Shown: in pieces, positions 47,321 to 62,991 of the stretch
Layout of the letters: each line of letters opens with the position of its first letter
Numbering within the stretch: the first letter of the stretch is position 1
Made by a program: the position numbers and the translations under genes
DNA from: Rhizobium sp. Q54
Lineage (GTDB): Bacteria > Pseudomonadota > Alphaproteobacteria > UBA2966 > CAIVPW01
NCBI GenBank assembly: GCA_945947575.1
Contig: CAMEYM010000007.1
Location: forward strand, 26,862-90,861
Length of the DNA stretch: 64,000 nt
Direction of reading: 5' to 3'
Notes under the pieces: generated by a model
Database searches by the model: none
What the model saw: only the letters and a program-made list of their open reading frames with translations
Told to the model about the DNA's origin: nothing

Positions 47321-48100
47321 CTAGCGCTGACTGAGCGCTTTGAGCGGATCGTCTGAGTTGTGCGCAGTATGTCGGTGCTCCGCGATGATTTCCCGGGCAC
47401 GATCCACGGTCGCGTCGCGCGGACCACGAGTGAGCCGCGGATCGTAGAGCGTGCGCAGTAGCACAAGGTCGTTCCTCGTCAGCCGGCGCTCTGCCAACAG
47501 CGCTGAGTCGATGCCGACCGGATGCGCTTGGAAACCGAACACGTGCATCAGCTCATGCCAGATGCATGCCTCTATCTCGTAGTGAGGCGACTCGTCCGGA
47601 ATCACGATCGTGGCGCGCCGGGCGCGCAGGTTTTGCAGCTGCGTGACCGTGTAGCAGAGGGTGTGTTCCGACAGATAGTCGGCACCCTCCTGCGTTGCAC
47701 CAAGGCGCCCCGCCATCAGGCCGTACTCCCTCGGCGGCACCAGCTCAATGAGCACATTGAACGACTCAGCACCCTGCGGAGCGAGTTGGGCGTCTATGCC
47801 CGTCAACATCGTAAAGCGCGCCGCAGCCTCCGCAACTTGAGGCGTGTATTGCTCCGAGCCTTTGCCCGTCAGCGCGATGCGCAGGGGCATTTCCCATGTA
47901 CGCAAGCCGGCGCCACGCAACGCCATGCGTTCGAAGTTGTCGGAGAGCACTTCGGCAGAGGCGAGGTTATCAACGCTAGGGGCACGCGCCAGCCAGACCA
48001 GCAATACGGTTAGCATCACGAAGAACGACAGCAGCCCAGGCCACAGCGCAAAGCGCCGTGGTGGTGGCTCTGGTCCCAATTCCTCAATGTCAATGAACAC
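47321..48100 (-). CDS. DUF2927-like membrane-anchored protein with HExxH zinc motif
   Basis: N-terminal TM; CIWHELMHVFG; D...LRTLYDPRL. Confidence 0.65.
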   Translation of the reverse strand: MFIDIEELGPEPPPRRFALWPGLLSFFVMLTVLLVWLARAPSVDNLASAEVLSDNFERMALRGAGLRTWEMPLRIALTGKGSEQYTPQVAEAAARFTMLTGIDAQLAPQGAESFNVLIELVPPREYGLMAGRLGATQEGADYLSEHTLCYTVTQLQNLRARRATIVIPDESPHYEIEACIWHELMHVFGFQAHPVGIDSALLAERRLTRNDLVLLRTLYDPRLTRGPRDATVDRAREIIAEHRHTAHNSDDPLKALSQR

Positions 48101-48140
48101 GCCGACAGCCTAGCTCCGGCTATGCGCCCAGCGTAAGCAG

Positions 48141-49547
48141 ATGGGGAGAGCGGTCTCGGCAATCCAGTTGAAAAGTCCCGAAGCGAGGGCTCAATTGCCG
48201 CCCCGCGATTGGCCCTATTGGTTCCGCATCGGCCGGGCGCGTTTCTTGGGATATTTCAGGCCCAGGGCAGGGTCGGGCACTTGGCAGGTTCAGTTCGGGT
48301 ATGTGTCCGAGGGTCGCACCAAGTATCGGCAGGAGCGACTTGGTTCCGCGGACGACTCCGTACCCTCGAACGGCGACCACGTCCTCGACTTCGACCAAGC
48401 ACTTGGTGCCGCGAAGCACGTCATCGCCGTCAACGGTCAAAAGGTCGTTCGGGCCAACTTCGGCGCGTCGCCCGACCGCCTACTGTATTGGCCCATTGGG
48501 GACACCTACACGGTCGGGCACGCCGTCCACGACTACTTGCGGTACATCCTCCTCTATCGCAGGTCGGGAGCATCGGTCATCTACCAAGCGAACCGATACA
48601 TTCTGCCGGACCTCGGCACGATCGCCGTATCCGAGCTTTCGCCGGACCGTTTGCGCGACTGGTTCGAGATCCTATCGCGCATCCCCGCTGCGCGCGGCAC
48701 CGGCCAACCCCTTCTGAACCCAAGCGCAGACGATATGCGTCGCCGTAAGGTCGCGGCAAATCGCATCCTGTCCGTGCTTACGTCCGCACTCAACCTTGCC
48801 TTTCGCGATGGCAAGGCGAACGACGATCGCGCTTGGCGCCGGGTGCGCCAACACAAGGTGCCCAGTATTCGCCTCCGCTACCTCACTGAGGACGAGGCAC
48901 GCGACTTCCTGCGGGAGTCGCCAGCGGATTTTCGCGACCTTGTGCTCGCAGCTCTTTGCACGGGCTGTCGGCAGGGGGAGCTGATACGCATGAAGGTGGA
49001 TGCCTTCGATAGCGCCCACAGTCGCGTCTACGTGGCGCCAAGCAAGAATGGCCGAGACAGGTGGCTTGCTCTGCCACCGGAAGGGGCAGACTTGTTTGCG
49101 CGCCTCGTGCGGCGTCGTGCCTCCACGGAACCTATGTTCCTAGGAGAGAGCGGCCAACCCTGGACGAACGGGCTTGCCGGCGATCAGATGCGCGCAACTA
49201 GGACGCGCTTGCGCCTTGGGCGCGACGTAGTGTTCCACACGCTGCGCCACACGTACGCCAGCTATCTGGTAATGGCCGGTGCGCCGCTGCTGGCGGTGAT
49301 GAAGTTGCTCGGACATTCGAGTTTGGACCAGGTGATCCGCTACGCGCACCTAAGCCCGGACTTTCTCACGGAGTCCGTTCTTCAACACTTTCCCCCAATG
49401 CTGCAGGGGGCGCCCGATGCAGCACCGGTGGTCAGTAACGCGACAGCAGCGCGCCGCGATTGGGATGCGTTTCAAGGCCATCCCGTTCAGAGGGCTCGGG
49501 AGTGGAGGGGTTGGCGCAACTCACTGCCAGCCTGGGCACGGGCCTAG
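48141..49547 (+). CDS. Tyrosine recombinase/integrase with arm-binding-type N-terminus
   Basis: Catalytic residues TGCR(QGEL), FHTLRH, LLGHS, RYAHL; N-terminal PYW..LGY..GTW. Confidence 0.93.
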   Translation: MGRAVSAIQLKSPEARAQLPPRDWPYWFRIGRARFLGYFRPRAGSGTWQVQFGYVSEGRTKYRQERLGSADDSVPSNGDHVLDFDQALGAAKHVIAVNGQKVVRANFGASPDRLLYWPIGDTYTVGHAVHDYLRYILLYRRSGASVIYQANRYILPDLGTIAVSELSPDRLRDWFEILSRIPAARGTGQPLLNPSADDMRRRKVAANRILSVLTSALNLAFRDGKANDDRAWRRVRQHKVPSIRLRYLTEDEARDFLRESPADFRDLVLAALCTGCRQGELIRMKVDAFDSAHSRVYVAPSKNGRDRWLALPPEGADLFARLVRRRASTEPMFLGESGQPWTNGLAGDQMRATRTRLRLGRDVVFHTLRHTYASYLVMAGAPLLAVMKLLGHSSLDQVIRYAHLSPDFLTESVLQHFPPMLQGAPDAAPVVSNATAARRDWDAFQGHPVQRAREWRGWRNSLPAWARA

Positions 49548-49747
49548 CGCACGACCAGCTTGGGCATGGCTGCGCCTCTCACTGCGGCGTGGAGGCAGGT
49601 CTCAATACGCTTGCGCCGATTGTTTGTAGGTGCGGCTGCTTCGGCACAACGGCACCGGGTGCTCGCGACTGCTCCAGATGCTTGCGCGCCCAGGCCCGCC
49701 CCCTGGCGCCAACAAAGCAAGTGCGAGCGCCGTTCCAGCGCGCCCGC

Positions 49748-50026
49748 TTAGCGTTTGGGGCGCGCTCGGTTGGTCCGGGCACTTCGGTGGCTAGCAAACC
49801 GAACGCCTTCGCCGCTCCCGTTCTCAGCAAGGAAGGAGAGGCCGGCGCGTTCGAGGGCTCGACGAATATCTGCGAGGGTTCGTGAGTACGGTTTTCGCCG
49901 TCCCCCCTCAAAGTCGGCAATGGTCTTGATCGCGACTTCCGCCGCCAGGGCCAAGTGACCTTGGGTCCAGCCCAACAGTCCGCGGCCGGCCCGGCATTGC
50001 TCAGGGGTCAAATCAGGCTCACTCAT
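49748..50026 (-). CDS. XRE/Cro-family HTH transcriptional regulator
   Basis: LTPEQCRAGRGLLGWTQ.HLA....V...TI.DFE.G, typical of small alphaproteobacterial XRE proteins. Confidence 0.88.
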   Translation of the reverse strand: MSEPDLTPEQCRAGRGLLGWTQGHLALAAEVAIKTIADFEGGRRKPYSRTLADIRRALERAGLSFLAENGSGEGVRFASHRSARTNRARPKR

Positions 50027-50058
50027 AGGATTACTTCTATACGATAACCTTACCGATT

Positions 50059-50070
50059 TCAAGTTGACTT
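50059..50070. promoter_or_regulatory. Overlapping palindromes in the xre/gp157 divergent spacer (candidate operator)
   Basis: TCAA-G-TTGA (50059-50067) and AAGT-TG-ACTT (50061-50070) in an AT-rich 100-bp spacer. Confidence 0.35.
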
Positions 50071-50126
50071 GCGGTCGGGGTGGAGCGTCATTGCGGCCGT
50101 AGACCACTTCAAACCTGCGAGGACCG

Positions 50127-50627
50127 ATGACCCACTTGACCCAAGAACTCGGCATTCACCTCCGGCTGCGGCAGCGGATTCAGGAGCTCTTTCCAAACAC
50201 GGATGAGGAAACTCTGGCAGACACCGTCGAGGGCTTAACCCGGCTAGACGACGTGCTGGCCGAGGTCGTGCGCTCGACGCTGCATGATGAAGCGCTCGCC
50301 GAGGCGCTGAAGGCCCGCATCAGCGGGATGCGTGCCCGCCTAGATCGGCTCGAAGCGGCGGCGGAAACAAAGCGCGCGGCTGTGGCGGCCGCGATGTCGG
50401 ATGCACAAATGCGCATCTTCATGATGCCGGAGGCAACGGTGTCGCTACGCGACCTGCCGCCGAAGTTGGTTGTGACCGACGAGGAAGCGATTCCCGATGC
50501 CTACTGGAAGCCGCAGCCGCCGAAGCTTGATCGCCGAGAGCTGGGCGATGCTCTCAAGGCAGGCGCGAACCTGCCCGGCGCGGTATTGGGAAATGGCGGT
50601 GTGACCCTGGCGGTGAGGGTGAAATGA
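50127..50627 (+). CDS. Siphovirus Gp157-family protein
   Basis: DEETLADTVEG, coiled-coil, IPDAYWK...KLDR..L.DALKAG..LPGA.L; GTGA-coupled to the Rad52 gene. Confidence 0.82.
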   Translation: MTHLTQELGIHLRLRQRIQELFPNTDEETLADTVEGLTRLDDVLAEVVRSTLHDEALAEALKARISGMRARLDRLEAAAETKRAAVAAAMSDAQMRIFMMPEATVSLRDLPPKLVVTDEEAIPDAYWKPQPPKLDRRELGDALKAGANLPGAVLGNGGVTLAVRVK

Positions 50628-51514
50628 CCGGCTTCTCCGCAAAACAGACTGTCACCCTTCGAGGCAAGCTCGATGGGGCACGGATACGCACCAGGGAGTG
50701 CAATGGCTCAACGCGGTCGTATCTTGAGGGTTGGTACGTCATCGCTGAGGCCAATCGGATCTTTGGCTTCGACGGCTGGGGTAGGGAGACCGTCGATGCG
50801 CGATGCATCTGGCAGGGGCGGGACGGGAGCAGCCTTGGATGCTCCTACATCGCCAGAGTCCGGATCATCGTCTACGCGGGTGATCGTGTCCTGACCCGAG
50901 AAGGGTCCGGCGCGGGTCACGGACGAGCTGATTCAGCGGGCGAGGCACACGCCAACGCCGTCAAGGAGGCTGAGACAGACGCTACCAAGCGCGCCCTGGC
51001 GACCTTTGGCAATCGCTTCGGATTGGCCCTCTATGATCCGAAACAGAACGGAGTCCGACAGCCATCACCAGCACGCGAGCGTACTGTCCGACACGAGCCG
51101 CGGGCGCTGCGAGCCGACGAGAGGTCGGGCGCGCAAATCGAGCGAAGCCTCGCGGAAATCGCTCCCATGCTTGTCCGTCCAATTCGTAGACGTGACAAAC
51201 AACATCTTCAGTTCGTCGGCAGCCAACCGTGCCTCGTGTGCGGCCGAACGCCGTCCCACGCGCATCATGTGAACTTCCTGCAACCGCGCGGTATGGGTCA
51301 AAAGGCCAGCGATGAATTCACCGTACCGCTATGTGCGATTCACCACCGCGCACTGCATGACTCAGGAAAGGAGCAGGACTGGTGGACGGCCACAAACATT
51401 GATCCGGCGCCGCATGCACTCAGCCTCTGGCAAATGAGCCAGCGAACGCTAGTCGACGAATCTCATTCGACCGCACCAGCCTTGCCACCGCTTAGCCAAG
51501 AACCAAGGACCTGA
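50624..51514 (+). CDS. Rad52/Rad22 (Sak-like) single-strand annealing protein with C-terminal DUF968/HNH-like domain
   Basis: YLEGWYVIAEANRIFGFDGW, KEAETDATKRAL.TFGN.FGLALYD; C-terminal CLVCG..HAHH..SDEFTVPLCAIHH..LH. Confidence 0.85.
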   Translation: MTGFSAKQTVTLRGKLDGARIRTRECNGSTRSYLEGWYVIAEANRIFGFDGWGRETVDARCIWQGRDGSSLGCSYIARVRIIVYAGDRVLTREGSGAGHGRADSAGEAHANAVKEAETDATKRALATFGNRFGLALYDPKQNGVRQPSPARERTVRHEPRALRADERSGAQIERSLAEIAPMLVRPIRRRDKQHLQFVGSQPCLVCGRTPSHAHHVNFLQPRGMGQKASDEFTVPLCAIHHRALHDSGKEQDWWTATNIDPAPHALSLWQMSQRTLVDESHSTAPALPPLSQEPRT

Positions 51515-51517
51515 CCC

Positions 51518-51543
51518 CCTTGGCGGTCGGGTTAGCGCCAAGG
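51518..51543. terminator. Hairpin between the convergent recombination and packaging operons
   Basis: CCTTGGCG-10 nt-CGCCAAGG; no clear U-tract. Confidence 0.4.
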
Positions 51544-52968
51544 CCGACGAACGTATCCCATTGCAGCCTCAAGGACGGGATCGCGGTCCCAGTACACGTC
51601 AAAGCGATTCTGGGCGCGCTGGTCAGCCCACTTTAGGAACTGCGACACGCTATCGACCTGATCGTCGTGCCGGCTGCTTGGGAATGCCAACAGCTCCTCG
51701 AGGAAAGCAGACAACCAAGGCGCGTCCTCGGGGATGTGGACCCTGCCCGCCTCAATCATAGTGGCTTGAACGTCAAGGCGGGAAACCTTGTCGCTTCCGG
51801 GCTCAATGGCGATGACCGAGATGCCTCCCTGCTTCCGCAGTTCTTGCAATAGGGCGATGCCCGACCCCTTGTCTTCGATGAGGACCGCGTTCGCAGAGAA
51901 CTTCTTGTGTAGCCGGAGAGCCGCGGTTCTGAGGGCCGGATACTCGAGGCGCTCCCGGTAGACGTCTACCAGAAAGTAGTTCTCGCCCGCCTCGAACCAC
52001 GTCGTGCAGACCGAATAATCGTTGCCCGCGTTTCCCTTCATCGCGGTATCCCAACTCTGCACAATGCGACTTGGTTGAGGTGCGATTGCGTAGGGTTGGA
52101 GCCACTCTCGCTTGACGAGATTGCCGGCATCCGGCACGGGGCGCTGCAGGTATTGCGCCGAAAAGTTGGACGACCCCATCGTCTTCTGCAGCTCGTCCAA
52201 CACGCTCTTTGGTTCGCGTGCCGGATGAAGGAGTTCGCCGCGGCGCATGTGGTGCACCACGCCCGGGCCCGTCGGAACCGATAGGTCCTCAGCAGCGATC
52301 GCGGGTAGGCAGAGATGGTGCCAACCACCGTCGAGAAGTAGGTGGCCAATGAGGTCCTCCACGTGCAGGCGCTGCATGACGACAATGATCGCCCCCGTGC
52401 GCTTGCTATTCAGGCGGGTCGAGAGCGTCGAGCGATACCAATTGATGACCTTATCGCGTGCCACCTTCGACATCCGCTCTTCAGGCTTCATGGGATCGTC
52501 GACAATGAGAACGTCGGCGCCACGCCCGGTAAGCGTTCCGTCAACGGACGTGGCGTAGCGCGAGCCTCCCTGCGTGGTTTTGTACTCCGACGCAGTATCG
52601 CTGGCCGCCGCCGTCGCCGGAAACGTGTCGCGGTACCAGTCAGCCTTCATCGTCAGGCGCGCCTTCCCCGCCAGATCGTTGGCGAGATCCTGGGAATAGC
52701 TCGCGCATGTGACGTGCTTGCGGGGATCGCGGCCCAGGATCCAGGCCGGCAACGCCACGGACGCGCAAATGGACTTGAGGTTACGTGGGGGCATCGAAAT
52801 CAGCAGACGCCGCTGGGCCCCATTGGCGCAACGTGCCAGTTGGTGACAGATGGCGTCGATATGCCAGTTCCGCTCGAATTGCGCTCCGGTGACCGTCTGG
52901 AACGTTCGCTCCACGAAGGCGCCGAAGTCGTTACGCAGGACAGCTTGCAGTTCGGCCTTAGTCGACAT
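51532..52968 (-). CDS. terL: Phage terminase large subunit
   Basis: Walker A-like MPPRNLKS, Walker B LIVDDP, nuclease SWDTA, IEDKGSG, HDDQVDS; reading frame intact. Confidence 0.9.
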   Translation of the reverse strand: MSTKAELQAVLRNDFGAFVERTFQTVTGAQFERNWHIDAICHQLARCANGAQRRLLISMPPRNLKSICASVALPAWILGRDPRKHVTCASYSQDLANDLAGKARLTMKADWYRDTFPATAAASDTASEYKTTQGGSRYATSVDGTLTGRGADVLIVDDPMKPEERMSKVARDKVINWYRSTLSTRLNSKRTGAIIVVMQRLHVEDLIGHLLLDGGWHHLCLPAIAAEDLSVPTGPGVVHHMRRGELLHPAREPKSVLDELQKTMGSSNFSAQYLQRPVPDAGNLVKREWLQPYAIAPQPSRIVQSWDTAMKGNAGNDYSVCTTWFEAGENYFLVDVYRERLEYPALRTAALRLHKKFSANAVLIEDKGSGIALLQELRKQGGISVIAIEPGSDKVSRLDVQATMIEAGRVHIPEDAPWLSAFLEELLAFPSSRHDDQVDSVSQFLKWADQRAQNRFDVYWDRDPVLEAAMGYVRRPWR

Positions 52969-53440
52969 CGGGGCGCTCCGTCGTTGCCTCGTTTGCGATC
53001 TCCTCGGAAGTAGCCTGAGCCGCCTCACCCTCCGCTGGTGTGCGGCCACCCGCCGCCTGGGCCTTCGCTTGTGCGCGCCGCAGCGCGCGTTCCTCGAAGT
53101 GCGCCAAGATCGCGGCCTCATCGTCGCTAAGCGTTGCTGCCTCCATCTGTTCGATCTCCGGCCCCATTAGACGGGCCATGATGTTGAACAAGGTGGCCTG
53201 AGCGCGTCCGTCACCTTTGATTGCATTGTTGAGAAGGCTCTTCACAACAGCACGCTGCTTGCTGATCTTTCGCTGGATCGGTCCCTCTCGGACGGCGATC
53301 CGCTCGCTCAGCTCCTCTGCTAGGTCCGTCTTCAGGTTCTTCGTTCCGCGCGGGCGCCCCTTCGGGTTGCCCGACTGGCCCTTCTTGAAGCGGTGTTCGC
53401 GCGGGGGCTTGCCATAGCCGACGTCGTCTGCGTCAGTCAT
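52958..53440 (-). CDS. DUF5681 protein (probable terminase small subunit)
   Basis: VGYGKPP..HRFKKGQSGNPKGRP signature; directly upstream of and overlapping terL. Confidence 0.82.
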   Translation of the reverse strand: MTDADDVGYGKPPREHRFKKGQSGNPKGRPRGTKNLKTDLAEELSERIAVREGPIQRKISKQRAVVKSLLNNAIKGDGRAQATLFNIMARLMGPEIEQMEAATLSDDEAAILAHFEERALRRAQAKAQAAGGRTPAEGEAAQATSEEIANEATTERPDVD

Positions 53441-54797
53441 GATCAACTCCGTCGGCCGGCAGCTGATCGCCATGCGCCGCATTGCGATCACCAGCCACCT
53501 GCGAGAACGTGCGGTGCGACGTGGCGTGATTTGCCTCTGTCCGGCTGTAGCGCTCCCAGCGACGCACAGCAGAGTCAACGTAGTAGGGATCAAGCTCGAC
53601 AAGGCGCGCGCGACGCCCGGTCATCTCGGCAGCAATCAATGTGGTGCCACTGCCGCCGAATGGATCCAGAACAACAGCGCCGCGCGTCGAGCAGTCCTTG
53701 ATCGCGTCAGCCACAAGGGCTGCCGGTTTGACGGTGGGGTGCATTGCAAGCGCCTCGGCACGGTTGATGTCGGGCGCGTCCGCCGCCGAGTACTCCCAGA
53801 CATTGGTGCGGGTACGGCCGTGCTGACCCAGCTCAAAGTTGTTGATGTGAGGTGCGTCGCCGTTCTTTAGGACGAAGACAAGCTCGTGTTGCGAGCGATA
53901 GAACGTTCCCATCCCGATCGCCGCCTTCTTCCAGACGCAGAGGTTCTTCCAGGTGAGGCGGGCCCCATGAGCGGCGTGGAGAATCTCGGGCGTGTGACGC
54001 CAGTCCATGCAGACAAAGTGGATCGAGCCGCTTGCGCTGTGTGCAGCCGCCAGGCGCAGAAAAATGCCCAGGAACGCGCTGTACTCATCCGACGACATCT
54101 CGCCGGATGCCATCGCGAACTCGCGGTGCTGGATCGCACCGAGACCTCCGGCGTGCCCGGCAATGCGGACGTTGTAGGGCGGATCGGTAAACACCATCTG
54201 GGCGAGCTCGCCGCCGAGGAGCACGTCGTAGCTCTCGCCCGCACACGCATCGCCGCACACAATTCGATGCGGGCCGCATTCCCACATGTCGCCCGGTCGG
54301 CTCACCGCCGGACCGGCACGTTCGACCGCCGCGACGACGTCTGCCTTCGGGTCAGCTTTTCCGCGTGCGGCCCCCTCGATGATCAAGTCGATCTCGGGCG
54401 CACTGAAACCTGTTACCGTGGTGTCGAATGAGACGGCGGTAAGGTTCTCGAGCTCAGCCGCGAGAATCTCCATGTTCCAGCTGGCGTTTTCTGCGATCTT
54501 GTTGTCGGCGAGACGTAGGGCCGACTTCTGGCGGTCAGTAAGGCCAAAGACCCGCATGACCGGGAAAGACTGAAGCCCGATCTGCTGTGCAGCAAGCCAA
54601 CGGCCATGCCCGGCGATGATCTCGCCCGTCGGATCTGCCACGATCGGATTGGTGGCGCCAAACTCGCGGATGCTGCGGGAAATTTGTCGAATCTGACCCT
54701 TTGAATGCGTGCGCGCATTGCTCGGGGACGGTCGTAGTGAGTTTAAGGGTGCAATCTCTGCCCGAACCCACTTGGTAATATCGGTCGGCAACGCCAT
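53433..54797 (-). CDS. ParB-like N-domain fused to a beta-class N6A/N4C DNA methyltransferase
   Basis: NARTHS..QI..SI.EFG.TNPI, IIAGHGR; motif IV FTDPPYN precedes motif I DPFGGSGTT; HPTVKP. Confidence 0.9.
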   Translation of the reverse strand: MALPTDITKWVRAEIAPLNSLRPSPSNARTHSKGQIRQISRSIREFGATNPIVADPTGEIIAGHGRWLAAQQIGLQSFPVMRVFGLTDRQKSALRLADNKIAENASWNMEILAAELENLTAVSFDTTVTGFSAPEIDLIIEGAARGKADPKADVVAAVERAGPAVSRPGDMWECGPHRIVCGDACAGESYDVLLGGELAQMVFTDPPYNVRIAGHAGGLGAIQHREFAMASGEMSSDEYSAFLGIFLRLAAAHSASGSIHFVCMDWRHTPEILHAAHGARLTWKNLCVWKKAAIGMGTFYRSQHELVFVLKNGDAPHINNFELGQHGRTRTNVWEYSAADAPDINRAEALAMHPTVKPAALVADAIKDCSTRGAVVLDPFGGSGTTLIAAEMTGRRARLVELDPYYVDSAVRRWERYSRTEANHATSHRTFSQVAGDRNAAHGDQLPADGVDHD

Positions 54798-55300
54798 GTG
54801 CACGCTCCTGCCTTCGGGAGCGCAGAATGCGATCTCCCTACAAGCACCGTTTTGCAAAGGCGTTAGCAGGATCGGTCGATTGTTCGACCCTAGACGCATC
54901 GCGGAGGGTCGGAAGCCTCTCGGCGCTCATTCTGATCTGTTAGATCTTCAATCGGATTTGCAGATCTATTCGGCGCAGCTCTATCGATCCTCGCGGGTCG
55001 AGGCGCGGATGACCGGTTCGAGCTCCGGGTTGACCATACCTCTCGCTCAAGCTGAGGGCGCAGACTCGGGGCTGTTCCGATCCTGTCGGGCCCTCAATTA
55101 ATTGGATTTGCAAGCACGGTCGATGGGACCCAGCATCCGTCGAGGCGCGCGGCGCGGCCGACCGGTTATTGCCTCTCCGACATTGTTAAGACGTGGCGAT
55201 CCTGCAGATCCGCATCTGGGTTTGCGGCACGTCGCCGGCGCGCAACTCACCCGCTGTTGCGCCCCCTGGCGTCATCGCCCCTCATCCTTGTTGTTCGCGA

Positions 55301-55471
55301 ATGAGTCGTATTCGTTTCCCTGTTCCGCCGCTCAGCGAACAGGCGACGGAGGCCGCAGCGCTTGGCGAACTCGCCCGCGAGGTCGAACTGTTCCCTCTAT
55401 TTTCCCTCAGGATCAGGGAATGCGTACGAGCTCGACCCGACCGTTGGTCGTTCAACGGTCACCGGAATTGA
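55301..55471 (+). pseudogene. Possible type I restriction specificity subunit (HsdS) fragment
   Basis: IRFPVPPLSEQ matches the conserved HsdS spacer motif PxPPLxEQ; the rest is not recognisable. Confidence 0.35.
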
Positions 55472-55677
55472 CGGACTTCTTGTGACCAAAACGGGGGCAC
55501 CGCGCCGTGCACCTGATGGCGCGGCTTACGCTTTTGTGGGGTGTCGCTGAGCGTCGTCCGCGACCTACGCCGGGTGCGTCGACCTGCTTTGTTGCCCCTG
55601 TTGGGAATCGGCACGGTCGTATGAACTGTTACACCGGGCCGACTGGGTGCCAGATTCTGCCAGCCAGCGCTGGGTGC

Positions 55678-55878
55678 CTAGCCGGAGCTTCGCCCGAGAC
55701 GCGAGTTGAAGTTCGCTATGCGTTCGGCCTCGAGGGTACTCGCGCGGTCGTCCAACTCCCTTGCGTGTTCGAGGAGCCCGGCCCGGTCAGCGGCGTCCTC
55801 GGTAGATTCAGCGCGACTACGCATTACCTCCGCCAACATCCTTAGTTTTCGGCTGACGCCGGTGCGATCTTCACCCAT
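55678..55878 (-). CDS. Small hypothetical protein (66 aa, helical and charged)
   Basis: ATG-started ORF with protein-like composition; no motif recognised. Confidence 0.4.
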   Translation of the reverse strand: MGEDRTGVSRKLRMLAEVMRSRAESTEDAADRAGLLEHARELDDRASTLEAERIANFNSRLGRSSG

Positions 55879-55988
55879 TTACATCCAGCACTTTAGGCCA
55901 ATAAACGAAGTGACGAAGTCGGTCCGCCGGCCCTGCTCCGGCAGCTAACCAGGGCGTTGCGACAAGATCGCCGCCGGGCGCAATAGGC

Positions 55989-56153
55989 ATGCGCAAACGC
56001 TGCAGGCACTTCGATGCGGGTCCGACGTTGGCACCGCGTTACTACCACAACGTGTCGCCCAAGCAACATTTGCTGACCTACCAACAAGCGTCTCTCCGGT
56101 GGATGGGCGGGCGGTTGGAACTTCGTATTCGACAAGCGCGGCTCAGCGTGTGA
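55989..56153 (+). pseudogene. Possible IS1595-family transposase C-terminal remnant
   Basis: Manual translation MRKR...RYYHNVSPKQHLLTYQQASLRW resembles the IS1595 C-terminal YHxVSxKHLxxY..F.R motif. Confidence 0.3.
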
Positions 56154-56169
56154 GTCGCGGCGGCAGGCT

Positions 56170-57123
56170 CTACCGCGGGCTTTGTGGCACGCGCAGCCCC
56201 AGCCAGATGATCAGTCCAGGCAACCCGGCGACGAACACCACCACACCAAACAGAACCGACGTGACTAGGGCCTGTTCCGGCGGCAGTCCCATCAGCCCAT
56301 AGAGGCCGATCATCACCACCTCACGCACGCCCCAACCGGCCATGGAGATTGGGATCGAGACGGCCAGCACCAGAGGGCCGGCGATCGCGATCGCCCGTGA
56401 CAAATCGAGGTCGTCGCAGCCGCACGTCGCGGCGTTCAGGAGAAACAGCGTTATTCCGACGAGGACAACAATCGGCACCGACGCAACGATCGCGAAGAGG
56501 ACGGCGCGCAGCTTGATGCGCACGCCCAACAGCGGCGCTAGCAACCTCGACGCTCGCGATCGCAATCCTCGTGACGACGGGTCAATCCAGGCATCCGGCC
56601 GCGGAATCAGGTTCACCAGGTAGAGGACGAGGAGTCCTCCTGGAACCGCGAGCGCTAGCAGCAGCAGGACCGCACTCCACACCGCCGGAAAAATCAGGCC
56701 AAACGGCTGAAAAAGGACGACTGCCGCAGCGTACAGGATGACGCTGCTGTACCCCGCGAAGCGATCGAGGACCGTGGCAGTCAGGACGTTGGGGGCGGGT
56801 GCACCTTGGCGGACGGCGTAGACGATGCGGGCCGCGTCGCCGCCCAGCGTCGAGGGCAGACCGGAATTGAAGAATTGGGTGACAAAGAGGAGGGCCGTTG
56901 CCTGACGAAGGCTGAGCGGCGCGACGTGCGCCACCATCAGGCGCCGCCATCGGAACGCGTTGACGGTGGTTGCAGCCATCATGGTAGCCGGCGCCAGCAG
57001 AAGGCGAAGGGGGTCGACTGAGTCAACGGAGGCGAAGGCGGCGCCGAAGTCGATGCCCCGGGTCGCCAGCCACAGCAGGCCCACGGACGCAGCGACCTTG
57101 ATGGCGAAGAGCGCCACGGTCAT
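56170..57123 (-). CDS. Lysylphosphatidylglycerol synthase TM / UPF0104 flippase-like protein
   Basis: RWRRL, FFNSGLPSTLGGD..R, DR, PISMAGWGVRE. Confidence 0.85.
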   Translation of the reverse strand: MTVALFAIKVAASVGLLWLATRGIDFGAAFASVDSVDPLRLLLAPATMMAATTVNAFRWRRLMVAHVAPLSLRQATALLFVTQFFNSGLPSTLGGDAARIVYAVRQGAPAPNVLTATVLDRFAGYSSVILYAAAVVLFQPFGLIFPAVWSAVLLLLALAVPGGLLVLYLVNLIPRPDAWIDPSSRGLRSRASRLLAPLLGVRIKLRAVLFAIVASVPIVVLVGITLFLLNAATCGCDDLDLSRAIAIAGPLVLAVSIPISMAGWGVREVVMIGLYGLMGLPPEQALVTSVLFGVVVFVAGLPGLIIWLGLRVPQSPR

Positions 57124-57351
57124 TCCCGAGCGGCGCTGCGGCGCACCACCGGCGATCTCTGACGTGCCCATCAGGGGTTCATTCGTCCGTGTCGGCGGCG
57201 AGTAGCGGGGGGTGCGACAGCAGCGTCGGCGTTGACGTCACGCCCAATGCGCCGGCGCGGCCCCGAAGGTAGTTCCGTGATGGCCAAACGTCCACCGCGG
57301 CATGCGCCGTCGCACGGGAGCGCCCTTGCGGTCGTGCGGTGGACCGCATAG

Positions 57352-59019
<1,668 letters not shown>

Positions 59020-59085
59020 TTGGCTGGGCGAGCCGCGGTTGACACCGGCGGCCGATGCCCATACACGATGCGCTCCCCAGCGCGC

Positions 59086-60357
59086 ATGTCAGCTCCTTCG
59101 GCACCTCAACAGATCGCTGTAATTGGCCTCGGCTACGTGGGCTTGCCGCTCGCAGTCGCGTTGGCGCGCAAGTACCGCGTGGTCGGCTACGACCTCAGCG
59201 AACGCCGCGTGGCCTCCCTGCGCACGGGCCACGATTGGACGCACGAGGTCGCCGACGCGGACGTCGCGGCCACCACCTGCCGCTTCGAGTCCTCCGCTAA
59301 GGCGATGGCGGGCAGCGACATCTTCATCGTCGCGGTGCCGACCCCGGTTGACGACAAGCGCAAGCCCGACTTCGGACCGATCGTCGGCGCCTGCGAGGCG
59401 GTCGGCCCATTGCTGAAGCCCGGCAACATCGTGTGCTTCGAGAGCACCGTGTACCCCGGTGCCACCGAGGAGATTTGCGCGCCGCTGCTCGAGCGCACCT
59501 CGGGCCTGAAATGCGGCAAGGATTTCTGGCTGGGCTACTCGCCGGAGCGCATCAATCCGGGCGACCCGGTCCACACGCTCTCCAGCATCGTCAAGGTCGT
59601 CGCCGGACAGACTCCGGAAGTCGGCAAGGTGCTTGCCGAGGTCTACGGCGCCATCACCAAGGCGGGGGTGTTCATGGCGCGCGACATCGCCACCGCCGAG
59701 GCCGCCAAGGTCATCGAGAACGCGCAGCGCGACATCAACATCGCGTTCATCAACGAGGTGACGCAGATCTTCAATCGCCTCGGCCTGTCGATTTACGACG
59801 TGCTCGACGCCGCCAACACCAAGTGGAACTTTCTGAATTTCCGCCCGGGCTTGGTCGGCGGCCACTGCATCGGCGTCGATCCGTATTACCTGGCCGACCG
59901 CGCCATCCAGGTCGGCTACGACCCGACGGTGGTGCTCGCCGGCCGGCGCACCAACGACGGCATGGGTGCGTGGCTCGCCGAGTGCATCGCCAAGCAGCTG
60001 GCGCCGGGCGCCAAGGTCCTGGTGCTTGGGCTGACCTTCAAAGAGAACGTCCCCGATCTGCGCAATTCCGGCGTCGCCGGCGTGGTCGAGGGCCTGCGCG
60101 CCGCCGGCCATCTGGTCTCGGTGCACGACGCGTTTGCCGATGCGGCCGAGGCGAAGCACGAGTACGGTATCGACTTGCTGCCGAAGCTCGACGGCGCCTA
60201 CGACGCCGTCGTCGCCGCCGTCGCGCACAAGCCGTACGTCGAGTTCGACGCCAAGCGCCTGGCGGCGCTCATGCCGCGCGGTGGCCTCGTCGCCGACATC
60301 AAGGGCATCTGGCGCCACGTCAAGTTCGCCGAGCCGCTACGGGTCTGGCGTCCCTGA
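59086..60357 (+). CDS. UDP-HexNAc 6-dehydrogenase (WbpO/TviB family)
   Basis: GLGYVG, ESTVYPG, SPERINPG, GGHCIGVDP, FKENVPDLRNS. Confidence 0.92.
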   Translation: MSAPSAPQQIAVIGLGYVGLPLAVALARKYRVVGYDLSERRVASLRTGHDWTHEVADADVAATTCRFESSAKAMAGSDIFIVAVPTPVDDKRKPDFGPIVGACEAVGPLLKPGNIVCFESTVYPGATEEICAPLLERTSGLKCGKDFWLGYSPERINPGDPVHTLSSIVKVVAGQTPEVGKVLAEVYGAITKAGVFMARDIATAEAAKVIENAQRDINIAFINEVTQIFNRLGLSIYDVLDAANTKWNFLNFRPGLVGGHCIGVDPYYLADRAIQVGYDPTVVLAGRRTNDGMGAWLAECIAKQLAPGAKVLVLGLTFKENVPDLRNSGVAGVVEGLRAAGHLVSVHDAFADAAEAKHEYGIDLLPKLDGAYDAVVAAVAHKPYVEFDAKRLAALMPRGGLVADIKGIWRHVKFAEPLRVWRP

Positions 60358-61679
60358 GCGGCCGGCGGCCGCAACACTTCGCGCTCGCCCTCTATGCGGC
60401 CGCGGCGACTATCGCCGCACCGCTCCTCGCCCGCCACCTCCGCCGCCGTGCCGCCGAGGGCAAGGAGGATGCCGCCCGCCTCGGCGAGCGTCTCGGCCGC
60501 GCCTCGGCGCTTCGCCCGCCCGGGCCGCTGGTCTGGGTCCACGCCGCCAGCGTCGGCGAATCCCTCTCCGTGCTGCCCCTCCTGGCCGAGATCCGCCGGC
60601 GCTGGCCCGCGCTCGCGATCGTCGTCACCAGCGGCACGCCGACCTCGGCCGCGGCCCTGGCCGCACGCATGCCGCCCGGCGTTGCGCATCAGTACGCGCC
60701 GATCGACACGCCTGCCGCGGTGCGCGCGTTCCTGGCGCATTGGCGCCCCAGCGTTGCCTTGTGGGTGGAGTCCGAGCTGTGGCCAAACACCCTCGGCGCG
60801 CTCCGCCGCGCCGGCGTGCCGGTCATCCTGGTCAACGCGCGCCTCTCGGATCGTTCCTTCCGGCGCTGGCAGCGCATTCCCGCCGTCGCGCGCACAGTGC
60901 TCGACGCGTTCGCCGCCGTACTTGCGCAGTCTGCGGCCGACGCCACACGCTTCCAGGCGCTCGGTGCGTCGAACGTGCAAACCGCCGGCAACCTCAAGCT
61001 CGCCGGCGAGGACCTGCCTGCCGACCCGGCGCTTCTGCACGCGGCGCGCGCCTTGCTGGGCGAGCGTCCGCGGTGGCTTGCCGCGAGCACGCATCCCGGC
61101 GAGGAGGACATCGTTGCCGCGGCGCACGCGCAGCTGGCGTCGCTACATCCCGCTCTGCTCACGGTGATCGTGCCGCGACATCCCGCGCGCGGAGCCGAGA
61201 TCGCGGCAACGCTCACGGCGCGCGGCCTCGGCGTCGCGCTGCGCTCCCGCCAGGAAGTGCCCGGCCCGCGCACTGCCGCCTACGTCGCCGACACGCTCGG
61301 CGAGCTCGGTTTATGGTACCGGCTGTGTCCGATCAGCCTGGTGGGCGGGTCGCTCGTCGCGCACGGCGGCCACAACCCGATCGAACCGGCTCGGCTCGGC
61401 TGCGCCGTGCTCGCCGGCCGTCACGTACACAATTTCCAGTCGGTGACCGAGGATCTGGTCCAGGCCGGTGCCGCCACCCTGGTCGAGGCCCCGTCTCAGC
61501 TCGCCGAGGTAGTCGGGGGCCTTCTGGCCGACCCCGGCCGCGTCGCGCGGATGGGCGAGGCAGGGCGCCGCTTTGCCGCAAGCCAGGGCGACGTGCTGCC
61601 CCGGGCCGTAGCGGCGCTGGAGGCTTGGCTCGCCCCGGCAGCGACGGGAAACGGGGCGGGCCCGCTTTCTTTGCGATGA
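60354..61679 (+). CDS. waaA: 3-deoxy-D-manno-octulosonate (Kdo) transferase
   Basis: ERLG, WVHAASVGE, ESELWPN, NARLS, GNLK, ASTHPGEE, PRHP, GGHNPIEP; start probably CTG 60354. Confidence 0.92.
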   Translation: MSGRRPQHFALALYAAAATIAAPLLARHLRRRAAEGKEDAARLGERLGRASALRPPGPLVWVHAASVGESLSVLPLLAEIRRRWPALAIVVTSGTPTSAAALAARMPPGVAHQYAPIDTPAAVRAFLAHWRPSVALWVESELWPNTLGALRRAGVPVILVNARLSDRSFRRWQRIPAVARTVLDAFAAVLAQSAADATRFQALGASNVQTAGNLKLAGEDLPADPALLHAARALLGERPRWLAASTHPGEEDIVAAAHAQLASLHPALLTVIVPRHPARGAEIAATLTARGLGVALRSRQEVPGPRTAAYVADTLGELGLWYRLCPISLVGGSLVAHGGHNPIEPARLGCAVLAGRHVHNFQSVTEDLVQAGAATLVEAPSQLAEVVGGLLADPGRVARMGEAGRRFAASQGDVLPRAVAALEAWLAPAATGNGAGPLSLR

Positions 61680-61766
61680 GGCGCCGCGTCCGGCCGATCC
61701 CGCGGGAGAGCGTTGGTCGCCAAGATGGGTTTGGCGTATGGTGGCCGCGGGGGACCTGACGCACGC

Positions 61767-62807
61767 ATGCTCGTAAGCTTGTTCTTCGCCGCAGCGGCGG
61801 CGCTCGCCATTTGCCTGGCAGCCCACCCGATTGCGCGCGCCCTCGGCGTCATGGACATCCCGGATGGCCGGCGCAAGCTGCACGCCCGTCCAACGCCCGA
61901 GGTGGGGGGCATCGCCGTCGGCGTGCCGCTGCTCGCGGTGCTGCTTTGGCTCGCGTTCTCGACCATGCTGCAACCGCTATTCCTCGCCCTCACGGCCGCC
62001 ATCGCCGCGTTCCTCCTGTTGGGGTTCGTCGACGACCGCAGCCACGTGCGCCCGATGTACCGCCTGATCGCCGCAGTCGGTGTCAGCGGCCTGCTGCTGT
62101 GGTGGATGCCTGCCGAGCGCATCGCGTTCTTCCGTTTCACCTTCCTCGACGTAGCGCTGTTTCCCGAGCCGCTGATTGCATCGGCGTTCACCGTGCTGTG
62201 CATCGTTGGGCTGCAGAACGCCCTCAACATGGCGGACGGCAAGAACGGTCTCGCGGTCGGGCTGCTGTTAACCTGGACCGTGCTGTTGCTTGGCTACGCG
62301 CCGCCCGACATCGTGCCGGCCCTCACCGCCCTGATCGGGGCGCTCGCCGTGGTGCTCGCCTTCAACCTGCGCGGCGCAGTCTTCCTCGGCGACGCCGGCA
62401 CCTACGGCCTCAGTGTCGCCGTCGCCCTATTTGCGCTCTACACCTACGGGGTGAGCTTCCCCGAACTGCATGCCGACGTCGTCGCGCTGTGGTTCCTGAT
62501 TCCGGTTGTCGATGCGCTGCGCCTCATCGCCACGCGCATCATGAGCGGCCTGTCGCCATTCTCCGCCGACCGCCGCCACTTCCATCACGTCCTGCAGGCG
62601 ACCTTGCCGGGTTTGCCTTCTGGGGGACGGCTCGGGCTGTACCTCGGCCTCGTCGCCGTGCCGGGCGCCCTGGCGATCTCGTATCCCGAGTTCACCCTGT
62701 TGTGGGGCCTGCTGGCGCTCTCGGCCTACGGCACCCTGCTGGTGTTGGCGCGCCTGCCCGTCGCGCGCGCCAGCAACGCCCACCTCGGATCGCAGTCCCA
62801 CACCTAG
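61767..62807 (+). CDS. MraY/WecA-family polyprenyl-phosphate HexNAc-1-P transferase
   Basis: D.P..RKLH..PTP..GG, GFVDD, NALNMADGKNG, FLGDAG, ADRRHFHH. Confidence 0.9.
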   Translation: MLVSLFFAAAAALAICLAAHPIARALGVMDIPDGRRKLHARPTPEVGGIAVGVPLLAVLLWLAFSTMLQPLFLALTAAIAAFLLLGFVDDRSHVRPMYRLIAAVGVSGLLLWWMPAERIAFFRFTFLDVALFPEPLIASAFTVLCIVGLQNALNMADGKNGLAVGLLLTWTVLLLGYAPPDIVPALTALIGALAVVLAFNLRGAVFLGDAGTYGLSVAVALFALYTYGVSFPELHADVVALWFLIPVVDALRLIATRIMSGLSPFSADRRHFHHVLQATLPGLPSGGRLGLYLGLVAVPGALAISYPEFTLLWGLLALSAYGTLLVLARLPVARASNAHLGSQSHT

Positions 62808-62844
62808 CGGCGGTACTCTCCCCGGGTGCCTGCTACAGGCAGCG

Positions 62845-62881
62845 TTGCCGCCCGCGCCGCGCTCGGCCTAAAGTGCGCCGC
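62845..62881 (+). promoter_or_regulatory. Sigma70-like promoter of tRNA-Gln with GC-rich discriminator
   Basis: TTGCCG-18 nt-TAAAGT followed by GCGCCGC. Confidence 0.45.
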
Positions 62882-62900
62882 TCTTTCACCACACGAGTCT

Positions 62901-62975
62901 TGGGGCGTAGCCAAGCGGTAAGGCACCGGATTTTGATTCCGGCATTCCGAGGTTCGAATCCTCGCGCCCCAGCCA
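62901..62975 (+). tRNA. tRNA-Gln (anticodon TTG), encoded CCA
   Basis: TGGGGCG acceptor stem, AGCCAAGCGGTAAGGC D-arm, CCGGA-ttTTGat-TCCGG, GGTTCGAATCC T-arm, CCA end. Confidence 0.97.
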
Positions 62976-62991
62976 CTCCACAGGCAAGCTA

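Follow-up and report, generated by a model that had tools for sequence, protein, structure and literature searches.

Satellites known so far either borrow the terminase of their helper, as PICIs, P4 and PLE do, or combine a terminase with their own capsid and portal, as in cf-PICIs. In lateral transduction, DNA is packaged in situ from an integrated pac site, by a complete prophage or by the TerS of a PICI acting with the TerL of its helper. To our knowledge, satellites are essentially uncharted in soil and freshwater Alphaproteobacteria. In cf-PICIs, which are small integrative islands, TerS, TerL and an HNH-type nuclease are self-encoded and the rest comes from the helper phage (PMC10085698; bioRxiv 10.1101/2022.09.08.507074). 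Classical PICIs and SaPIs and the marine VEIMEs, of 5-20 kb, contain an integrase, a repressor, a packaging-specificity gene and often defence cargo (PMC10085698; PMC9618062). In phage WO, a ParB-domain methylase or ParB-like gene is followed by a small protein, by TerL and then by the portal; a recombinase is found in WO genomes immediately 3' of a DUF2924 protein (PMC10299305).

The island described here is placed at 48112-55689 of the window, i.e. the whole stretch of 64,000 nucleotides that was analysed, and contains 7 intact genes in 7.6 kb. Similarly to PICIs, SaPIs and VEIMEs, it combines an integrase, a repressor and a putative packaging-specificity gene in a small element; as in cf-PICIs, TerL is present. 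A TerS candidate, DUF5681, is recognized by its position, and an HNH-type DUF968 is present but fused to Rad52. The block ParB-type gene, small protein, TerL is also that of phage WO and of Leptospira phage LE3. The island belongs to a widespread, apparently undescribed family of capsid-less terminase-carrying elements, whose common part is the trio of ParB-methyltransferase (MTase), DUF5681 and TerL genes. The features are the following:

47321-48100, host-type flank, DUF2927 gene (Pfam)
48112-48133, no strand, left arm of an inverted repeat, 22 nt, AGCTCCGGCTATGCGCCCAGCG, flush with the left island junction
48141-49547, + strand, tyrosine integrase, 468 aa (Phage_integrase 4e-22; phrog_1 1e-53)
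49748-50026, - strand, Xre-type HTH regulator (HTH_19, weak; PADLOC 'Control_protein' 2e-15)
50127-50627, + strand, Sipho_Gp157 protein (Sipho_Gp157 3e-20; PHROG label Gam-like end protection)
50624-51514, + strand, Rad52/Sak annealing protein fused to DUF968, of the His-Me, HNH type (2e-31 and 4e-14)
51532-52968, - strand, large terminase TerL, 478 aa (phrog_38 7.5e-115; Terminase_6C 9e-14)
52958-53440, - strand, DUF5681 protein, 160 aa, putative small terminase (Pfam 2e-24)
53433-54797, - strand, ParB_N / N6_N4_MTase fusion (1e-25 and 1e-7; phrog_498 3.5e-122; PADLOC MTase_II 3.5e-92)
54798-55667, - strand, non-coding leader upstream of the trio, about 870 nt, candidate promoter, operator or pac region
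55668-55689, no strand, right arm of the inverted repeat, proposed right island end
56170-57171, host-type flank, LPG_synthase_TM (Pfam)
57388-59019, host-type flank, pgm (Pfam)

The 22-nt inverted repeat encloses all seven genes; its two arms, which match at 20 of 22 positions, are the only copies in the window, and none is expected in shuffled sequences. On the left, nucleotide homology to the relative L138, which is 82% across the DUF2927 gene, ends at 48111/48112, where the left arm starts; the right end, proposed at 55689 from the position of the right arm, falls in a 1.7-kb segment (55512-57217) absent from the relative L001. With respect to the organization of Gram-negative PICIs, the integrase lies at one end, next to the left junction at 48112, and a direct-repeat att site was not found in the window, which provides the inverted repeat only. 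The initial annotation had described seven intact open reading frames at 48141-54797, with no capsid, portal, tail, primase, helicase or lysis gene between the host-type flanks: the genes are indeed intact, at or within a few codons of the coordinates given there, and ORF, Pfam and PHROG searches recovered none of those functions. The extent holds for the genes, while the element probably covers 48112-55689, adding the non-coding DNA upstream of the methyltransferase. Beyond the seven genes, ORFs of at least 50 aa at 48.1-56.1 kb have no Pfam match, the remaining ORFs being frame shadows. Elsewhere in the window, the ten largest ORFs encode surface-polysaccharide and metabolic functions rather than phage structural proteins.

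The trio genes overlap by 8 and 11 nt and thus form one operon, of which the ParB-MTase is the first gene in most loci. The longest ORF for TerL runs to 53121; the start at 52968 agrees with the orthologues. Walker A (PPRNLKS), Walker B (DDP) and nuclease (SWDTA, IEDKGSG, HDDQVDS) motifs are conserved, and these catalytic motifs are common to portal-linked phage TerLs; the profile match to T7 TerL is weak. By its motifs, an ATPase with Walker A and B followed by a predicted C-terminal RNaseH-like nuclease, the protein is assigned to the TerL family. The DUF5681 gene immediately precedes that of TerL, with an overlap, both here and in more than 80 loci; in the isolated Leptospira phage LE3, a homologue occupies the same TerS position, followed by TerL and the portal. 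Its AF2 model (pLDDT 72) comprises a basic N-terminal arm, a beta-hairpin and three long helices; fold searches gave no significant match in PDB or among annotated BFVD entries, and hence no solved or annotated small terminase. DUF5681 is a candidate small terminase by gene position; thus, of the full two-subunit terminase initially annotated, the large subunit stands with intact motifs and the small one remains putative. In the leader, where no ORF has a Pfam match, positions 54798-55511 are conserved with L001 at about 85-90% identity, and the lengths of the indels are not divisible by three; the only two copies of GGATTTGCA in the window fall inside the leader, and RNA folding gives z = -2.4 (20 shuffles).

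In the other half of the island, the integrase translation contains HxxR and the C-terminal Tyr region. The longest ORF for the Xre regulator extends to 50155; the gene diverges from the gp157 operon across a 100-nt intergenic region and is likely to act as a switch. Xre homologues adjoin Gp157 in L054 and L127/L128, and an HTH gene lies two genes away from it in the Pyruvatibacter locus L143. The Cys/His motif of Rad52-DUF968, CLVCG...HHV...PLCAIHHRALH, does not vary among 4 orthologues; ordinary viral contigs encode Rad52 and DUF968 separately. The HNH-type domain of DUF968, being fused to Rad52, may therefore serve recombination rather than packaging.

No described satellite class accounts for this gene content. 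The AlpA-type regulator and the primase/replicase of Gram-negative PICIs are absent from all island ORFs, and redirection by TerS or Rpp only is contradicted by a full-length TerL with intact motifs. The cf-PICI assignment was rejected on the absence of capsid, portal, protease and connector genes in the island, in 42 related loci and in nine annotated contexts; P4-like satellites and PLE, on Pfam and PHROG searches yielding no Psu/Sid/Delta, alpha-primase or PLE core family; a gene transfer agent cluster, on the lack of structural genes in the island and in the ten largest other window ORFs. Nor was any replication gene, AlpA, excisionase, capsid-size gene or interference gene found in the island. 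PADLOC 2.0 matched the methyltransferase (MTase_II) and the HTH protein (control protein) only, and none of TerL, DUF5681, Gp157 and Rad52-DUF968; the literature searched yielded no description of the trio family or of the seven-gene set. The original view that the locus matches no known satellite class has thus held against described classes, PADLOC systems and the literature.

The trio-linked TerLs form one clade, with 85 trio loci and 14 whose upstream sequence is unknown, and none of its members is portal-linked; conversely, TerLs outside this clade in viral contigs are directly followed by a verified Mu, HK97, P22, SU10 or type-3 portal. Among the trio loci with at least 1.5 kb of downstream DNA, a portal downstream of TerL was found in none (0/42), and the nine contexts annotated in Pfam or GenBank contain no structural gene; portal or capsid genes thus do not follow in homologous loci, in favour of the initial annotation, which had suggested that the locus may be an element rather than a decayed prophage. 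In 50,697 phage genomes the best TerL match has at most 38% identity, whereas matches at 50-60% number thousands among bacterial and metagenome proteins; a TerL of this clade was found in no full-length prophage or isolated phage. TerL homologues make up more than 7,800 clusters at E <= 1e-40, a count that includes non-trio TerLs, and DUF5681 more than 1,500. By its co-oriented overlapping trio, its clade TerL and its portal-less context, the island is assigned to the trio family as defined here.

What about 100 loci have in common is the trio and not the seven-gene set, which had initially been taken as a whole; the set does recur in Pyruvatibacter. The window island is modular. In L143 the same seven functions form one island, in a different order and with 30-51% amino acid identity; a 13-bp direct repeat is found 4 nt past the int stop and at the far end, although it is one of four such repeats in the 20-kb locus, about the chance expectation, and is notable by position only. 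Elsewhere, the gene order is DUF5681-TerL-MTase (L081 and L083). A DUF3489-DUF2924-serine recombinase set lies beside the trio in more than 20 loci; tyrosine integrases, repressors of the S24 and Xre types and an M78/HTH pair are further recurrent neighbours. The cargo varies, with Thoeris-like TIR genes, a Gabija-like pair, Mrr and R-M genes among it. Satellites and other integrative islands are laid out in this way. The trio is also linked to two unrelated annealing-recombinase families, Rad52-DUF968 and ERF-DUF968 with YqaJ, in at least 4 arrangements. No recombinase was found within 9-10 kb of the trio in Sphingobium L142, Bradyrhizobium L130 and L127; these loci are at least as compatible with a cellular role of the trio by itself as with a mobile element. 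The hosts, among them Bradyrhizobium, Sphingobium, Pyruvatibacter and Pseudochelatococcus, are Alphaproteobacteria of soil and freshwater; a 40%-GC GenBank record from human faecal samples, deposited as 'Bacteriophage sp.', contains the SerRec-DUF2924 / MTase-DUF5681-TerL backbone as well.

All island genes tested are under purifying selection, with dN/dS values of 0.09-0.26, in comparisons that reach dS up to saturation; the host pgm has 0.094. For terL the value is 0.19-0.26, so that its selection is not relaxed, and values are 0.09-0.19 for Rad52-DUF968 and 0.085 for Gp157 vs L127. Two diverged MAGs carry the island next to pgm, at an unchanged site (88% and 77% nucleotide identity), and its genes are intact in three lineages differing by 12-23% in nucleotide sequence. 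In the comparison with L001, dS is 0.21-0.31 for island genes and 0.34 for pgm; this closeness indicates that the island has persisted since those lineages split. Its vertical stability at one site in three lineages counts against a mobile-element reading. The island is intact and selectively maintained, and is not a decaying prophage, which agrees with the initial suggestion; a functional prophage was likewise rejected, in the absence of structural genes.

We give about an even chance to the island being a helper-dependent, satellite-like integrative element that brings its own terminase. The hallmark of the family, as judged from gene content, is an apparently phage-derived packaging operon that has lost every virion structural gene. 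The Xre-type switch would keep the element silent. Once a helper is active, which would be a tailed phage that infects or is induced, or possibly a gene transfer agent (GTA), the element's own TerS/TerL would recognize a site in the element, for which the leader and the terS gene are candidates, cut there and pump self-methylated element DNA into helper procapsids; headful packaging would take up either excised multimers or the element together with chromosomal DNA next to it. In the recipient, integration would rely on the tyrosine integrase, or on homologous recombination driven by Gp157 and Rad52-HNH; in sister elements, a serine recombinase or the ERF and YqaJ pair would replace these functions. 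Docking of TerL on a foreign portal would be required, and we know of no described capsid-less satellite that does so. More tentatively, the three-gene cassette itself may be an independent parasite of Alphaproteobacteria, and probably beyond, which makes no virion part, would hijack a compatible infecting phage or GTA by packaging from its own chromosomal site and would install itself via an accompanying integration module, i.e. a serine or tyrosine recombinase, or a recombineering-type annealing-protein module with no att requirement.

Alternatively, the trio could be an autonomous, terminase-derived restriction-like or anti-phage cassette carried by a mobile island, which we consider unlikely. 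DUF5681 would recognize a site, TerL would translocate and cleave DNA with ATP and the methyltransferase would protect self DNA, roles paralleled by HsdS, HsdR and HsdM of type I restriction systems. The likeness, of a methyltransferase, a DNA-recognition subunit and an ATP-dependent translocase-nuclease, would be a functional analogy only; there is no sequence relationship to type I systems, and the nuclease-ATPase of the trio is a bona fide TerL. In favour of a cassette, the trio is the sole part conserved across the loci, kept even when its order changes; it is under purifying selection, has no portal partner, stands alone among host genes in the Sphingobium replicon (L142) and is often found among defence genes, with Mrr, R-M, Gabija-like and TIR genes adjoining it in several loci. 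However, these genes differ between loci, as cargo does, and no PADLOC model matches the trio except for the methyltransferase. Moreover, a ParB-MTase/TerS/TerL block with a portal occurs in real phages, WO (PMC10299305) and Leptospira LE3; the methyltransferase linkage is therefore phage-inherited and not evidence of self-protection. Repeated links to serine or tyrosine recombinases and to two annealing-recombinase families would also be unexpected for a restriction cassette.

That integrase, recombination cassette and terminase cassette were acquired separately at an integration hotspot, as a chance mosaic with no joint function, seems quite improbable. Related integrases (about 50% amino acid identity) do adjoin the DUF2927 gene of relatives, where they have other cargo (L138) or none, most loci contain the trio without the other modules, the Rad52 module occurs without the trio in 79/80 viral contigs, and the surface-polysaccharide cluster in which the island lies is a typical variable region. 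Conversely, the adjacency of trio and annealing module in at least 4 independent arrangements with two recombinase families, the presence of all seven functions in one candidate repeat-bounded Pyruvatibacter element and the inverted repeat spanning all seven genes argue against a mosaic. Finally, a temperate-prophage deletion remnant in which disabling mutations have not yet accumulated is very improbable and largely refuted: every gene has phage relatives, gp157-Rad52-DUF968 is ordinary early-region content of temperate phages and standard in 30-60-kb viral contigs, no clear direct-repeat att is found in the window and a related metagenome contig (L140) has a decayed integrase and a large deletion, but genes are intact in three lineages under the selection reported above, the portal-less architecture recurs in more than 40 independent loci with a monophyletic TerL clade, the same functions occur in differing orders and trio-clade TerLs are in no full-length prophage or isolated phage.

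If the satellite-like reading is true, the family would represent a new satellite strategy, based on its own motor and a stolen shell, would imply that TerL is functional on a foreign portal and would offer a candidate vehicle for defence cargo and for the chromosomal neighbours of the element, here e.g. the surface-polysaccharide cluster. The restriction-like alternative, in which a terminase would have been domesticated for immunity, would also be new. Since TerL-based virus detection labels trio loci as viral, virus counts are inflated; indeed, about 20 of the IMG/VR contigs examined are trio loci without structural genes.

Compared with known systems, WO/LE3-type temperate-phage packaging modules are the likely ancestral source of the trio; in those phages TerL is followed by (gpW and) the portal and a full head and tail set, which is never the case in the trio clade. 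As in lateral transduction, a terminase acting on an element still in the chromosome could package it along with the DNA next to it, which would explain trio loci without integrase and open a possible new route of lateral transduction for adjacent host and defence genes; differently from it, the whole terminase would be supplied by a capsid-less element. PICIs, SaPIs and VEIMEs have replication modules and encode at most a small terminase or a redirecting protein, using the TerL of the helper, whereas the trio family carries TerL and no replicon. cf-PICIs encode capsid, portal, protease and head-tail connectors, and usually AlpA and a primase-replicase, none of which is in the island; having its own portal, the cf-PICI provides the one on which its TerL works. 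A family with a complete terminase only would thus fill the unoccupied point between terminase-borrowing satellites and cf-PICIs.

The seven open reading frames that the initial annotation had listed at 48.1-54.9 kb are all present and uninterrupted, and each was confirmed by profile search:

48141-49547, plus strand, tyrosine integrase (int)
49748-50026, minus strand, Xre-type HTH protein (xre)
50127-50627, plus strand, Sipho_Gp157 protein (gp157)
50624-51514, plus strand, Rad52/Sak annealing protein fused to a DUF968 His-Me finger (sak-DUF968)
51532-52968, minus strand, TerL
52958-53440, minus strand, DUF5681 protein
53433-54797, minus strand, fusion of ParB_N and an N6/N4 methyltransferase (MTase)

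The MTase, DUF5681 and TerL genes, here named the trio, overlap by 8 and 11 nt and constitute a single operon, convergent with the gp157-sak operon, the stop codons of the two being 17 nt apart. Host-type genes flank the island (DUF2927, LPG-synthase TM and phosphoglucomutase, pgm); profile search gave no domain match for the remaining ORFs between them. The public record of the source contig (L126) also calls a 127-aa gene at 49502-49885 (+), overlapping the 3' end of xre, which runs the other way. This gene is without a Pfam match and the call is probably spurious, because the xre frame is what other loci conserve.

The ten largest ORFs elsewhere in the window are polysaccharide-biosynthesis and metabolic genes, in agreement with the L126 gene table. 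A surface-polysaccharide cluster surrounds the island (1-47000 and 57388-62800), with genes for Asn synthase, DegT aminotransferase, methyltransferases, an ABC exporter, GT2/GtrA, pgm and probably UDP-glucose dehydrogenase; polysaccharide genes (ManC, Wzy) also adjoin the islands of two other loci, L127 and L143. Base composition does not distinguish the island from its surroundings. An Rfam search of the window returned tRNA only, and the tRNA-Gln at 62901 was rejected as integration site, being 7 kb from the island.

Genome, viral and metagenome collections, scanned for TerL, yielded 125 loci, to which context look-ups added others. Where TerL is at least 44% identical, ParB-MTase and DUF5681 genes nearly always lie directly upstream; in a neighbour-joining tree 85 trio-linked sequences, together with 14 whose upstream sequence is truncated, form one TerL clade, inside which no portal-linked sequence falls. 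The initial annotation had described a capsid-less packaging and recombination island; homologous loci do not continue into portals (0 of the 42 trio loci in which 1.5 kb or more of downstream sequence is available). Twenty ORFs beside or downstream of trio TerLs were assigned by Pfam to host enzymes, R-M genes, Mrr, transposases and TPR proteins, and no head or tail family is found among the 25 PHROG families listed for 113 flank ORFs of 18 long loci. Out-of-clade TerLs in viral contigs are directly followed by a portal (Pfam-verified Mu, HK97, P22, SU10 and type-3); by seed search, 13 of 22 non-trio loci are portal-positive. No TerL match above 38% was obtained in 50,697 genomes of isolated phages. 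TerL clusters at E <= 1e-40 number more than 7,800 in the protein database, many with 50-60% identity, the few with an organism label being assigned to Bradyrhizobium or Proteobacteria; the names of cluster members yielded no taxonomy. Against the PDB the window TerL sequence has no match; profile search gave a weak match to T7 TerL. No trio contig has a terminal overlap, thus none is demonstrably circular. Several short "viral" contigs of IMG/VR (L006-L017, L024 and L031) consist only of the trio with or without a serine recombinase module and are devoid of structural genes; virus calling that relies on TerL probably misassigns this family. The C-terminal tails of TerL are too variable to inform on portal docking. 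In a subclade of trio TerLs, present in soil-metagenome loci such as L072, L089, L090, L097 and L104, the C-terminus is extended by about 60 conserved aa (...SGRHINVGPDGT[IV]EMS..DA..LIR.GWTKL...); the window protein does not have this extension.

The non-coding leader of the trio operon, upstream of MTase (54798-55511), is 85-90% conserved with L001, a locus in a diverged MAG, although indels disrupt every reading frame. The 9-mer GGATTTGCA occurs twice in the window, at 54954 and 55104, both times within this leader, which is a candidate promoter, operator or pac site. A P1-type pac site, suggested by a GATC cluster in the leader, was dropped, GATC being equally dense window-wide (6.7 per kb). 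Scans for sigma-70 promoters and terminators gave no excess, with counts at or under shuffle expectation, and the RNA folding score of the leader (z = -2.4 on 20 shuffles) is too weak for a claim of structure.

The surroundings of the trio are variable. A module of DUF3489, DUF2924 and a large serine recombinase adjoins it, on either side, in more than 20 loci; Pfam-annotated contexts include regulators (HTH, S24 repressor, M78/HTH pair) and a changing defence-type cargo, with ThsB-TIR and TIR_2 genes, an AAA_15/UvrD pair, RES toxin, Mrr, NaeI, and Dcm with EcoRII. Other lineages, too, carry the window's recombination module next to the trio, differently arranged: L127 and L128 have Gp157, Rad52-DUF968 and an S24 repressor with the trio, without integrase and at another chromosomal site, and in L054 the trio is accompanied by xre and gp157. 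Bradyrhizobium LLZ17 has an unrelated pair in place of the module, YqaJ exonuclease and ERF-DUF968. All seven functions are found together in Pyruvatibacter sp. (L143), in another order and with 30-51% identity to the window proteins; Rad52-DUF968, Gp157 and HTH are on one strand, MTase, DUF5681, TerL and tyrosine integrase on the opposite one, and a Wzy gene adjoins the element. One copy of a 13-bp direct repeat lies 4 nt past the L143 int stop and the other at the far end of the element, with about 10.7 kb between them; since 13-bp repeats are common by chance across this locus, only its placement is suggestive.

A backbone of SerRec-DUF2924 and MTase-DUF5681-TerL is also found in a 40%-GC GenBank "Bacteriophage sp." record from human faecal samples, and the trio with an M78/HTH pair in a locus named Myxococcota; the trio architecture therefore probably extends beyond Alphaproteobacteria. 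A link of MT839917.1 to a Mexican VLP virome study found no confirmation in the text of that paper. On a Sphingobium chromid only the trio is present, amid host genes. Pseudochelatococcus lubricantis (NZ_JBHLXC010000002.1; L004, L005) has two 4.5-kb units, each an uncharacterised 219-245-aa gene plus the trio, 88% identical, in the same orientation and 26 kb apart. Carriers that can be cultured include Pyruvatibacter sp. GCA_054602295.1, Bradyrhizobium sp. LLZ17, Sphingobium sp. TomTYG65 and Pseudochelatococcus lubricantis CCM 8528. The order is DUF5681-TerL-MTase in L081 (9390-12845), where another DUF5681/MTase pair follows 4 kb further on, and in L083 (1015-4718). A conserved pair, an uncharacterised protein of 282-416 aa and a metallo-beta-lactamase-fold protein, stands beside the trio in L003 (6240-8769), L076 and L129 (5020-7106); no conserved fourth gene was found upstream of the trio.

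A 22-nt inverted repeat (20/22 match; arms 48112-48133 and 55668-55689) has no further copy in the window, and shuffles expect none. The DUF2927 gene is shared at 82% nucleotide identity with a relative, L138, whose homology ends at 48111/48112, exactly where the left arm begins; past this junction L138 has unrelated cargo and another member of the same integrase family (about 50% aa identity). In a third relative an integrase adjoins the DUF2927 gene, with urease genes directly after. These comparisons map the left junction and show the site to be a hotspot of integration. The right end is placed by the inverted repeat, and would thus be 55689. The inverted sequences just inside both ends may be core-type binding sites of a tyrosine integrase, which would have this appearance; no direct-repeat att of at least 12 nt was found between the island ends. 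In L001, island homology stops at 55511 and restarts at 57218, so that 1.7 kb of the window (55512-57217) are absent, and the second diverged MAG, L002, likewise appears to be without the LPG-synthase region. Either the right end of the island was lost in these relatives or the segment was gained by the window; it contains the right repeat arm, a 66-aa ORF with a weak DUF6381 match and the LPG_synthase_TM gene. A metagenome contig (L140; ENA ERZ27280297 k141_233994), compared with window 47414-63389, was rejected as an empty site, as it is a mosaic or misassembly: its DUF2927 gene and decayed integrase match the window at 69-71% identity, xre and the 5' part of gp157 at 84%, and the match then jumps to mid-pgm at 98.6%. 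It reflects either a genuine deletion of 7.7 kb (50452-58135) accompanied by recombination, or chimeric assembly of the metagenome.

The island lies beside pgm, at the same site, in the two diverged MAGs (nucleotide identity 88% for L001 and 77% for L002). Pairwise dN/dS by the Nei-Gojobori method is 0.09-0.19 for sak-DUF968, 0.19-0.26 for TerL, 0.21-0.25 for DUF5681, 0.10-0.25 for MTase and 0.085 for gp157, with 0.094 for the host pgm. The dS against L001 is 0.21-0.31 for island genes, near that of pgm (0.34); the lineages have thus kept the island, with all its frames, since they split. TerL has conserved Walker motifs (A, PPRxLKS; B, DDP) and conserved nuclease motifs (SWDTA, IEDKxSG, HDDQVDS), all identical to those of portal-linked TerLs.

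The modules have phage counterparts. Gp157, Rad52 and a DUF968 gene of its own belong to the usual early-region repertoire of viral contigs of 30-60 kb (of 80, 17 have DUF968 as a separate ORF and 24 have Gp157). Very few relatives of DUF5681, a putative terS by gene position, occur in isolated phages; in Leptospira phage LE3 a ParB-like gene is upstream, and DUF5681 directly precedes TerL, followed by the portal. The order in phage WO is ParB-methylase, hypothetical protein, terminase, gpW and portal, and in a wStri region a recombinase is immediately downstream of a DUF2924 protein (PMC10299305). By sequence DUF5681 has no match in the PDB, and a fold-based proof as TerS failed, the AF2 model matching only other DUF5681 proteins. 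The island looks like a derivative of a temperate phage cut down to integration, switch, recombination and packaging.

The best-supported reading, with about an even chance of being right, is a helper-dependent, satellite-like element with its own terminase. Such an element would take capsids from a phage or GTA and package its DNA by its own terminase, the MTase protecting this DNA as phage methylases do; after transfer, integration would proceed via the recombinase or by homologous recombination driven by the annealing protein. In favour count a backbone of mobile-element type, cargo that differs between loci, a packaging trio found repeatedly with one or another integration module, and a TerL that is catalytically intact by its motifs and under purifying selection; the lack of a replicon, of a demonstrated att site in the window and of an identified helper, and the trio loci devoid of any mobility gene, count against. 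These last loci fit as well or better with the main rival, a restriction-like cassette made up of the trio and complete in itself, in which MTase would mark self DNA, DUF5681 would provide recognition and TerL would act as translocase-nuclease; PADLOC support is limited to the methylase, and the MTase-terminase linkage, inherited from phages, is alone no argument for the cassette, which we consider rather unlikely. A chance mosaic of modules is unlikely. Least credible is a plain prophage remnant: the initial proposal that the island is not a decayed prophage is well supported by its intact genes, dN/dS of 0.085-0.26 and the same site in diverged MAGs.

We rate the island as a satellite-like integrative element, which represents a large family. 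The literature searched, mostly without subscription journals, holds no description of the trio, of TerL-bearing or capsid-less satellites or of orphan terminases, and novelty is unproven. A satellite census (PMC10085698) and a paper on marine VEIMEs (PMC9618062) mention TerL only for cf-PICIs or as a helper function. Differently from PICIs, the island has neither AlpA nor primase and does have TerL; differently from cf-PICIs, it is without capsid, portal and connectors; and it fails the defining features of P4-like elements, PLE, GTA clusters and prophages. The proposal of the initial annotation that it fits no known satellite class is well supported.
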